NCBI RefSeq assembly: GCF_013167455.1
Contig: NZ_CP038328.1
Direction: 5' to 3' (one strand)
Length of the DNA stretch: 64,000 bases
DNA from: Escherichia coli O157:H7
Lineage (GTDB): Bacteria > Pseudomonadota > Gammaproteobacteria > Enterobacterales > Enterobacteriaceae
Shown: positions 9,001 through 12,000 of the stretch, piece after piece
How the letters are laid out: each line of letters opens with the position of its first letter
Numbering within the stretch: position 1 is the stretch's first letter
Made by a program: the position numbers

Positions 9001-12000
9001 GATCGGTGCCAGTTTGGCATCATCCAGCGCATCGATCAGCGGATGAATGTTGTAACCACCCTGCATAGTACCCAGCAGTTCGATGGCTTTTTCCGGAGTC
9101 AGCAGTGGGGATTTGGCTTCGCCTTTGGCGACAGCAGCCAGGAAGCCTGCTTTAACATAGGCGGCTTCATCGACGCCAGGAGGAACACGGTTGGTTAACA
9201 GATCTAACAGGAATTCTTCTTCGCCCGCGGGCGGGTTTTTCAGCAGCTCTACAAGCGCGGCCATTTGGTTTGCATCCAGGGGTTTGGGCGCAATCCCCTC
9301 AGCGGCACGCTCAGCTACGTGCTTACGGTATTCTTCTAGCACGACGGTTCTCCTCGCTCTCATTGTCATAGTGCGGCAGGCGATTCTCTTCACGCTCCTG
9401 TGAGACAGCAGTTTGTAGGGTAAATGCCCAGTACCGCAACGGGCAGAATAGCAGGATTTTGACGACGTGTTAATCTGTTTACAAAAAAGCAACATAAAAA
9501 AGTGGCTGAATCGTTAAGGATGGTCTAGAGATTGTTTCCCTCCGTAAAAACTTCGTTAATTCGCATGGTGATAATCACCTTTCTCAACGAATCCCAAGAT
9601 TAGTCAAAATTTAAACTACCGCCTCTTTATACTCGGATTCACAGCACCTGCGGGTGGCAGTTCGCCGACCATTGCGATTTCCTTGAGATCCGAATTATGA
9701 AAATGACTTTGCCGTTTAAACCCCATGTGCTGGCGCTAATTTGCAGTGCCGGGCTTTGTGCCGCCTCTGCCGGGCTATATATAAAAAGCCGCACAGTGGA
9801 AGCGCCTGTGGAAACGCAATCGACACAACTGGCTGTGTCTGACGCTGCCGCAGTTACGCTTCCTGCAACGGTTTCCGCACCTCCCGTAACACCCGCCGTC
9901 GTCAAATCCGCATTCAGCACTGCACAAATAGATCAATGGGTCGCGCCCGTCGCGCTGTATCCCGACGCCCTACTTTCGCAGGTGCTGATGGCATCAACCT
10001 ATCCGACAAACGTTGCTCAAGCAGTGCAATGGTCGCACGATAATCCACTTAAACAAGGCGATGCTGCTATTCAGGCGGTATCTGACCAGCCGTGGGACGC
10101 CAGCGTTAAATCACTGGTGGCCTTTCCACAATTGATGGCATTGATGGGCGAAAACCCGCAATGGGTGCAAAACCTGGGCGATGCTTTTCTGGCCCAGCCG
10201 CAGGACGTGATGGACTCGGTACAACGATTGCGGCAACTGGCACAACAAACCGGCTCGCTGAAGTCATCAACCGAACAGAAAGTTATTACCACAACGAAGA
10301 AAACTGTACCGGTAACACAGACAGTCACGGCTCCCGTCATACCATCCAATACCGTTTCAACTGCCAACCCTGTCATTACAGAGCCTGCAACAACCGTCAT
10401 TTCCATTGAGCCCGGCAATCCTGATGTGGTCTATATTCCCAACTACAACCCAACCGTGGTTTACGGGAACTGGGCCAATACTGCGTATCCGCCGGTTTAT
10501 CTGCCACCACCAGCCGGAGAACCGTTTGTTGACAGCTTTGTACGCGGATTCGGCTATAGCATGGGCGTTGCTACCACGTACGCACTATTCAGCAGCATCG
10601 ACTGGGATGACGACGATCATGACCATCATCATCATGACGATGATAATTATCATCACCACGATGGCGGTCATCGTGACGGTAATGGCTGGCAACATAACGG
10701 CGACAACATCAATATCGACGTCAACAATTTCAACCGTATCACCGGTGAGCATCTTACTGATAAGAATATGGCATGGCGGCACAATCCAAACTACCGTAAT
10801 GGTGTGCCCTATCATGATCAGGATATGGCAAAGCGGTTTCATCAAACTGATGTCAACGGCGGAATGAGTGCCACGCAGCTACCTGCTCCAACACGCGACA
10901 GCCAGCGTCAGGCGGCAGCAAGTCAGTTTCAGCAACGAACACACGCCGCCCCCGTCATTACACGAGATACCCAACGTCAGGCAGCGGCACAGCGGTTTAA
11001 TGAAGCTGAACACTATGGGAGCTATGACGACTTCCGCGACTTCAGCCGTCGCCAACCACTGACCCAGCAACAAAAGGACGCCGCTCGTCAGCGTTATCAG
11101 TCAGCTTCTCCTGAGCAGCGCCAGGCAGTTCACGAGAAAATGCAGACTAACCCGCAGAACCAGCAGCGAAGAGAGGCAGCGCGTGAGCGCATTCAGCCCG
11201 CCTCGCCTGAGCAGCGCCAGGCAGTCCGCGAGAAAATGCAGACTAACCCACAGATCCAGCAGCGAAGAGACGCAGCGCGTGAGCGTATTCAGTCAGCCTC
11301 GCCTGAGCAGCGCCAGGTGTTTAAGGAAAAAGTACAGCAGCGCCCACTGAACCAACAGCAACGTGATAACGCCCGCCAGCGTGTTCAATCAGCATCACCT
11401 GAACAACGTCAGGTTTTTCGGGAGAAAGTTCAGGAGAGCCGCCCACAACGTCTAAACGACAGTAACCATACTGCCAGGCTGAATAACGAGCAACGGTCAG
11501 CAGTACGCGAACGTCTCTCTGAGCGCGGAGCAAGGCGACTGGAAAGGTAAATTACAGGCGTAAAAAAAGCGGCGTGGTTAGCCGCTTTTTTAATTGCCGG
11601 ATGTTCCGGCAAACGAAAAATTACTTCTTCTTCGCTTTCGGGTTCGGCAGGTCAGTAATGCTACCTTCGAACACTTCTGCCGCCAGGCCCACAGACTCGT
11701 GCAGAGTCGGGTGCGCGTGGATGGTCAGTGCGATGTCTTCAGCATCACAACCCATTTCAATTGCCAGGCCGATTTCACCCAGCAGCTCGCCGCCGTTAGT
11801 ACCGACAATCGCACCACCGATCACACGGTGAGATTCTTTGTCGAAAATCAGCTTGGTCATACCGTCTGCGCAGTCGGAAGCGATAGCACGACCAGAAGCA
11901 GCCCACGGGAAGGTGGCGGTTTCATAGCTGATGCCTTTCTCTTTCGCTTCTTTCTCAGTCAGACCTACCCATGCAACTTCTGGTTCGGTATAGGCGATGG

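Follow-up and report, generated by a model that had tools for sequence, protein, structure and literature searches.

The yacH locus and its Asp/His-rich tract

The stretch analysed here is 64,000 nt of Escherichia coli O157:H7 DNA (hereafter the window). It carries on its plus strand the gene yacH, whose product contains a dense run of aspartate and histidine residues. The coding sequence extends over 9697–11550 and comprises 617 codons plus stop, as supported by the list of open reading frames (ORFs), by the match to Pfam family PF11737 (DUF3300) and by E. coli annotation. The window DNA is 100% identical to E. coli loci annotated 'yacH: DUF3300 domain-containing protein', and 5425/5426 complete E. 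coli genomes contain the gene. The DUF3300 match scores 262.1 bits (cut-off 25; E 5.3e-78) and covers aa 75–333, corresponding to profile positions 2–227 of 227. A Pfam scan of YacH returned no domain besides DUF3300, an NCBIfam scan matched no family and no relatives of the protein were found in the PDB.

The Asp/His tract, DDDDHDHHHHDDDNYHHHDGGHRDGNGWQH, occupies aa 304–333 (10606–10695, plus strand) in frame with the yacH ORF, and is predicted to form a disordered loop in the turn of a β-hairpin. Read in frame, nucleotides 10600–10695 begin with gac tgg, encoding D-W, and continue as the codons of DDDDHDHHHHDDDNYHHHDGGHRDGNGWQH. A first-pass annotation of this DNA had placed an Asp/His-rich tract in YacH at 10600–10690; the tract is real and in frame, and these limits are about 6 nt off. 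The same annotation had taken the protein to be periplasmic or secreted and its gene to lie between acnB and lpd. Both points agree with our results, as YacH begins with a hydrophobic segment that fits export or anchoring, and the ORFs confirm the gene order.

Within a span of 27 residues the tract holds 9 His and 10 Asp. At proteome frequencies, the binomial probability of finding at least 19 Asp or His in 27 residues is 4.3e-16, and chance does not explain this composition. The next richest 27-mer among window ORFs of at least 100 aa contains 9 Asp/His residues and belongs to a multicopper oxidase, within its Met/His region. Together with the adjacent NGDN (aa 304–337) the tract comprises 10 His and 11 Asp, and the net charge over aa 301–335 is –10. 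The oxidase is CueO-like (Pfam Cu-oxidase_3/_2/Cu-oxidase; Tat signal) and is encoded at 2327–3874 on the minus strand; its Met/His-rich stretch, at 2675–2737, is the other metal-ligand-rich low-complexity segment of the window.

A predicted expansion of a β-hairpin turn

The only strongly hydrophobic 19-mer of YacH lies in an N-terminal helix at aa 9–29 (9721–9783, plus strand; helix 9–27 in the AlphaFold2 model), which may be a signal peptide or a signal anchor. This segment, LPFKPH.LAL.CSAGL.AASG.LYVKSR, is strikingly conserved across Enterobacterales genera. A DUF3300 relative from Bradyrhizobium has a classical A-x-A, cleavable-looking signal peptide, and signal peptides have been noted for DUF3300 and DUF2950 proteins in a paper on rhizobial genomes (PMC4653623). 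Because of these three observations, we infer that the tract is extracytoplasmic, probably in the periplasm, and that YacH is exported or anchored via its N-terminal segment. A variable Pro/Thr/Ala linker follows. It leads into the Pfam-defined region (aa 75–333, 9919–10695, plus strand), which consists of a helical domain at aa 75–184 and a β-region. AlphaFold2 models aa 71–200 and 231–270 with predicted local distance difference test (pLDDT) scores of 94–97.

Immediately before the tract, family alignments reveal a conserved strand, GVATTYALFSSIDW (aa 290–303, 10564–10605, plus strand), whose last residue, W303, is nearly invariant in the DUF3300 family. Directly after the tract come NGDN, equivalent to the ancestral four-residue turn, and the strand/helix motif INIDVNNFN (aa 334–346, 10696–10734, plus strand), in line with the family consensus DW-xxxD-VNINVNxYN and with both models. 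A further family-conserved motif, WRHNPNYRNGVPY, follows at aa 360–372 (10774–10812, plus strand), with H362 and R367 at least 90% conserved.

An exhaustive, profile-free search with YacH aa 70–420 yielded 9,519 cluster representatives at 50% identity. We aligned 102 sequences, drawn from the best matches and the orthologues, and measured the connector between W303 and VNINVN.YN. Its median length is 4 residues and it is exactly four residues long in 69/102 aligned proteins, typical examples being GHND, GRGD, HRHS and HHDD (often G/H-R/H-G/H-D). In YacH the connector measures 34 residues, compared with 4 in most of the family. The AlphaFold2 model of a short-connector relative, P0142, shows a strand at 266–269, a four-residue turn and a second strand at 274–277, with pLDDT values of 84–88; the first of these strands, E266–269, corresponds to YacH aa 290–303. 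In the YacH model, strands at 299–301 and 338–340 enclose the tract, which is of low confidence (pLDDT 45–50) and predicted to be intrinsically disordered. Equivalent strands thus flank a short turn in P0142 and the tract in YacH, and the tract is accordingly an insertion widening the β-hairpin turn. According to these models, it is a loop of about 30 residues, specific to Enterobacterales, that replaces a tight four-residue turn. His and Asp are favoured already in the ancestral turn: His makes up 20% of the residues in four-residue turns versus 1.6% of whole proteins, and Asp occupies turn position 4 in 34/69 four-residue connectors.

Conservation of the tract across strains and genera

A scan of species-representative genomes identified orthologues in E. 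albertii, Klebsiella, Raoultella, Enterobacter, Kluyvera, Buttiauxella, Dryocola and one further Enterobacteriaceae strain, adjoining acnB and lpd wherever the flanks could be seen. Further orthologues, from Salmonella enterica, S. bongori, Citrobacter, Pseudocitrobacter, Leclercia, Hafnia and others, came from a second search that started with the Rahnella sequence. In this second search, an Asp/His tract stands at the equivalent position in 118/118 Enterobacterales protein clusters, among them clusters from Klebsiella, Enterobacter, Kluyvera and Rahnella as well as Salmonella, Citrobacter and Hafnia. Among the 103 motif-matched clusters its length ranges from 12 to 38 residues, with 3–12 His (median 6) and 5–13 acidic residues (median 9). 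A loose pattern recurs, consisting of D3-5, an aromatic residue or His, H3-4, D2-4, an aromatic residue, 1-2 His, a Gly run and N-G-D-N, and in most orthologues seen the tract starts with a DDD(D) run right after W303. The first-pass annotation had considered that the tract might be poorly conserved or absent in orthologues. This is not what we observe, as the tract is present in every Enterobacterales cluster examined and appears to be under purifying selection (see below). Its conservation is not family-wide, and most DUF3300 proteins have four residues at this position.

Within E. coli the tract is always present; the 119 of 120 protein clusters that were matched show 22 variants with 20–31 residues before WQH, and the length shifts are always in frame. 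CFT073 has gained 8 aa through an exact 24-nt duplication, another strain has gained 2 aa and strain E3 has lost 13 aa. The Escherichia tract is among the longest versions in Enterobacteriaceae. Sequence comparison over at least three Enterobacterales families indicates that the tract is kept as a feature and in its composition, and that its exact sequence and length are not.

Codon slippage and selection

Codons of the form NAY (GAY Asp, CAY His, AAY Asn, TAY Tyr) account for 64–90% of tract codons, the remainder being mostly GGN; over E. coli aa 304–337 their share is 76%. Due to this predominance, single first-position changes can interconvert the four dominant residues of the tract, Asp, His, Asn and Tyr, among genera. 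E. coli alleles vary in length at runs such as cat-cat-cat-cat, and the tract appears to change length by whole-codon slippage of NAY codons. The mixture of gat with gac and of cat with cac argues against a recent, pure DNA amplification.

To estimate selection we applied the Nei-Gojobori method to the 34 codons of the tract plus NGDN (aa 304–337), a sample that yields small numbers. Against E. albertii, the synonymous rate (dS) is 0.61 and the non-synonymous rate (dN) 0.047, giving an omega of 0.08. Comparison with the divergent E. coli AST85 allele yields 15 synonymous differences over 14.5 sites, which is saturated, and only 10 non-synonymous differences over 87.5 sites. The resulting dN/dS range of 0.08–0.16 is similar to or below that of the rest of YacH. 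Small as the numbers are, they suggest purifying selection on the amino-acid sequence of the tract and argue against a neutral spacer.

These data bear directly on the explanation that best survives beside the one we prefer, namely that the tract is a low-complexity loop born of slippage, which is kept hydrophilic, disordered and acidic in order to spare the hairpin and has no specific ligand. The NAY/GGN codon make-up, the E. coli indels that are exact codon duplications or deletions (24 nt in CFT073) and the 22 length and sequence variants among 120 E. coli clusters are all consistent with such an origin. So are the 12–38 residue length range, the poor conservation of residue order between genera, the low-confidence disorder in the model and the absence of the tract from most of the DUF3300 family. 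However, the low dN/dS with saturated synonymous sites indicates that the residues themselves are kept, beyond length and hydrophilicity. Moreover, the order D-run then H-run is seen in every genus, and the His enrichment of the four-residue ancestral turn is unexpected for a mere spacer. On balance, we regard a ligand-free loop as a somewhat unlikely explanation.

In S. Typhimurium strains 14028s, SL1344, UK-1 and D23580, an 8-bp deletion relative to LT2 renders yacH (STM0157) a pseudogene (PMC3391293). What is apparently the same deletion has been mapped to the codons gac-gat-cat-cac within the tract, as Asp284fs (PMC10048834). The occurrence of a tract-internal frameshift in several S. Typhimurium strains therefore suggests that the repeat is a frameshift hotspot. 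The deletion (Asp284fs; window about 10606–10650) is also present in an S. Typhimurium isolate from human milk.

Genomic neighbourhood and the DUF2950 partner

Upstream of yacH, acnB (6745–9495, minus strand) is divergently transcribed, and lpd (11621–13108, minus strand) lies downstream. AcnB and Lpd are 92–99% identical across genera, whereas YacH is only 45–58% identical across the same genera, and it follows that these genes evolve independently. A functional tie of yacH to AcnB or Lpd was dropped, synteny being its sole support and the identity levels differing sharply. The first-pass annotation had drawn attention to the proximity of the Fe-S enzyme gene acnB. This link amounts to adjacency with a divergently transcribed gene and looks incidental; the conserved partner elsewhere is a downstream DUF2950 gene.

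This DUF2950 gene (PF11453) lies directly 3' of the DUF3300 gene in Klebsiella (for example L012:5655–6452, Pfam E 3e-79), Raoultella, Enterobacter, Kluyvera, Buttiauxella, Dryocola, RIT691, Bradyrhizobium and the metagenomic locus L024. The pairing held in every non-Escherichia locus examined, L011–L020 among them, and the two families have been called universally co-localised (PMC4653623). In the window and in the E. coli and E. albertii loci, tblastn detected no DUF2950 remnant, even at E 50, and the gap between yacH and lpd in the window measures only 70 nt (11551–11620). As DUF2950 is missing from the Escherichia loci, Escherichia YacH is an orphan of a conserved gene pair. In Klebsiella, a secreted-looking ORF of ~95 aa without a Pfam match lies between the DUF2950 gene and lpd (L012:6509–6796, minus strand). 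A similar minus-strand ORF seems to fill the 750-nt yacH–lpd gap of E. albertii (L010:5798–6546) and is absent from the 70-nt gap of the window.

Neither in loci L022–L024 nor in the genome loci sampled did we find metal-homeostasis or other metal genes beside DUF3300 family members, and no enzyme-maturation genes were seen near yacH among the window ORFs or in the sampled orthologue loci.

Further features of yacH

The C-terminal part of yacH contains a 96-nt tandem repeat of 2.7 copies (11056–11317, plus strand), detected by Tandem Repeats Finder and in the alignment of E. coli alleles. It encodes basic 32-aa 'ASPEQRQ' units of the form 'ASPEQRQAVREKMQTNPQ.QQRR.AARERIQS' at aa about 454–541, with 84% matches. 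The tail as a whole is basic, Gln/Arg-rich and helical, with a net charge of +16 over aa 441–617. Copy number differs by whole units among E. coli alleles, with genes of 1758, 1764, 1782, 1815 and 1854 nt and clusters of up to 662 aa. A pairing of the acidic tract with these basic repeats was considered and dropped, the covariation across 114 orthologues being of the wrong sign: rho is +0.30 between tract charge and C-terminal charge and –0.51 between His count and C-terminal charge, values that are not corrected for phylogeny.

yacH is unusually diverged within E. coli, with 89–100% DNA identity across complete genomes. Two allele classes can be distinguished in the Thr/Pro/Val-rich linker at window positions 10297–10430 (aa 201–245), VPVTQTVTAPVIPSNTVSTANPVIT versus VPVNQPANAPATQSNTVSTSSPVVA, and between the classes aa 201–301 show a dS of 0.45–0.53 and a dN of 0.08–0.09. 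This divergence could stem from old alleles preserved through recombination, or from selective pressure on an exposed stretch.

Candidate signals and genes of other kinds were rejected. A sigma-70 and terminator scan of 9340–11700 stayed at chance level, including a promoter-like match within the tract at 10619–10647. A CpxR-box pattern gave 60 matches versus 45 expected, and upstream of yacH only a site with 2 mismatches. Two off-frame ORFs across the tract, at 10406–10867 (plus strand, 153 aa) and 10585–10845 (minus strand, 86 aa), were judged to be artefacts and not genes; in such frames the NAY repeat is translated as Ile/Met/Thr-rich strings, e.g. MTTIMTIIIMTMIIIITTM.

Possible functions of the tract

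Published data on yacH concern its regulation and mutant phenotype. The gene is CpxR-regulated, its mRNA falls with protamine, and a deletion mutant survives protamine better than the wild type (PMC9600279). In a rob mutant its mRNA is reduced about 16-fold (PMC7537768). Ampicillin elicits a response from its promoter (PMC8865558), and it is among the genes altered by a cathelicidin-derived peptide (PMC6737244). The literature searched contained no metal link for yacH, DUF3300 or DUF2950, and no mention of the tract.

The interpretation we tentatively prefer, with a confidence that falls a little short of even, is that the tract is a low-affinity divalent-metal loop, possibly also titratable by pH. 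Its basis is the composition of the tract: an exposed, disordered cluster of imidazoles and carboxylates that is kept by selection and predicted to lie in the periplasm would resemble loops best known for binding Zn, Ni or Cu at several sites with low affinity. The loop would then bind divalent transition metals (Zn, Ni, Cu) at multiple sites with micromolar affinity, through His imidazoles and Asp carboxylates. Metal occupancy, together with His protonation, could turn it from an extended polyanion into a compact form, and this compaction may modulate the DUF3300 hairpin in whatever envelope role it has. The loop would act as a modulator or sensor of the hairpin and not as a dedicated metallochaperone. 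A metallochaperone role, suggested by the likeness that the first-pass annotation saw to tracts of such proteins, is not indicated for a protein that has DUF3300 as its only Pfam domain, no PDB relatives, no metal genes among its sampled neighbours and an envelope-stress pattern of regulation.

Several observations weigh against metal binding. Reported regulation of yacH is of the envelope-stress type (Cpx, Rob, ampicillin, antimicrobial peptides) and none of it is metal-specific, and sampled DUF3300 family members do not have metal-homeostasis genes next to them. The number of His residues is not fixed and drops to a minimum of 1 in one Buttiauxella agrestis orthologue. Natural E. coli alleles exist in which 13 tract residues are lost or 8 gained, and most of the ~9,500 DUF3300 cluster representatives have no tract. 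The frameshifted S. Typhimurium strains 14028s, SL1344, UK-1 and D23580 are laboratory strains of full virulence, so the distal part of YacH is dispensable there. Finally, composition by itself cannot separate metal binding from pH titration.

Titration is the core of a second alternative, which is compatible with metal binding. Here the tract would be a polyanion at neutral pH (net charge about –10), neutral near pH 6 as its 10 His become protonated and cationic in strong acid, and would report periplasmic pH, which follows that outside, to the DUF3300 domain. The charge count of the tract and the periplasmic exposure suggested by the N-terminal segment are consistent with such a switch, as are the largely enteric lifestyle of the tract-bearing clade and the His/Asp pairs kept under selection. 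Against it, no acid phenotype of yacH has been reported, the CpxR study listed yacH for protamine and not for acid, and an electrostatic latch would require tract charge to covary with the basic C-terminus in the opposite sense to that observed. We consider a pH switch unlikely as the main role of the tract.

Least convincing is a site for polycations or hard cations, in which poly-Asp would bind Mg, Ca or cationic antimicrobial peptides: it would explain the protamine survival of the deletion mutant and accords with the drop of yacH mRNA in protamine (PMC9600279), the response to a cathelicidin-derived peptide and the DDD(D) run directly after W303 in most orthologues seen, but the protamine phenotype is that of the whole gene and not of the tract, stems from a single study and leaves the His enrichment unexplained, making this role improbable.

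A broader and highly speculative interpretation can also be formulated, to which we give little credence. The His/Asp hairpin turn might be the ligand-sensing site, for a metal ion or a proton, of the whole DUF3300–DUF2950 envelope system, amplified to a multi-site loop in Enterobacterales. In Escherichia, which lost DUF2950, it might now sense or buffer on its own and thereby influence how susceptible the envelope is to cationic peptides. Were this so, the tract would be the first point of experimental access to a family of ~9,500 clusters without a characterised member.

As part of the E. coli 'y-ome', YacH is a member of a very large family, DUF3300, that has neither a characterised member nor a solved fold. 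What had been a low-complexity region now appears as a selected, Enterobacterales-specific feature at a defined hairpin turn that favours His and Asp. Should the loop prove to bind metal, the Cpx/Rob envelope-stress circuitry would gain a metal-responsive element in the periplasm; should it bind none, it would be a clean case of a codon-slippage tract under compositional selection. Whichever way the metal question falls, the effect on current knowledge is modest.

Comparison with known systems

The closest parallel in E. coli is the His-rich loop of ZnuA (b1857), a Zur-regulated protein. Like the YacH tract, this loop is periplasmic, flexible and Asp/His-rich, and the heptapeptide DDDDHDH is common to both. 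The likeness to metal-binding tracts noted in the first-pass annotation is borne out to this extent. ZnuA serves an ATP-binding cassette importer as its cluster A-I solute-binding protein and contains a high-affinity zinc site, whereas YacH has neither that fold nor a transporter partner. The resemblance is compositional and not one of homology. The ZnuA loop has been described as a micromolar, possibly regulatory zinc site apart from the main site (cited in PMC8561739).

A second periplasmic-type comparison is offered by PA4063 of Pseudomonas aeruginosa. Its two His-rich loops are disordered in the apo state and become partly ordered on micromolar zinc binding, with one Asp and either two or three His as ligands, and a role as a chaperone or concentration sensor has been proposed for them (PMC8561739). 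PA4063 has a ferredoxin-like fold, is expressed under zinc deficiency and belongs to a zinc-uptake operon, whereas for YacH we found neither expression linked to zinc nor such an operon.

Similarly dense low-complexity tracts of His with Asp or Glu, binding several Ni, Co or Zn ions, occur in the C-terminal tail of SlyD, in a loop of RcnA and in Hpn. These tracts are on the cytoplasmic side and are joined to domains of defined function such as a peptidyl-prolyl isomerase (PPIase) or an efflux pump, whereas that of YacH is predicted to be extracytoplasmic and lies within DUF3300. YacH also differs from metallochaperones of the HypB, SlyD, UreE and Hpn type in carrying an export/anchor segment, in lacking a GTPase or PPIase domain and in having no maturation genes nearby. 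The segment of the CueO-like oxidase shares with the tract its low complexity, its wealth of metal ligands and its position as a periplasmic insertion within a folded domain. It is, however, Met-rich and part of a copper oxidase of known function, and it is encoded about 6 kb from yacH on the opposite strand; nothing evident connects the two.

In its overall architecture, YacH is a full-length DUF3300 member, with the helical domain, the β-region, the DW...VNINVN.YN hairpin, the W.HNP.HR.GVPY motif and a basic low-complexity tail. It departs from other members in the growth of the turn from 4 to 34 residues and, in Escherichia, in the missing DUF2950 partner gene. His/Asp-rich periplasmic loops are already known as a kind, and YacH represents an unstudied example in an unstudied family. 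New with respect to the literature searched are the clade-specific His/Asp expansion of a hairpin turn, its NAY-codon dynamics, the purifying selection that appears to act on it and the loss of DUF2950 in Escherichia.

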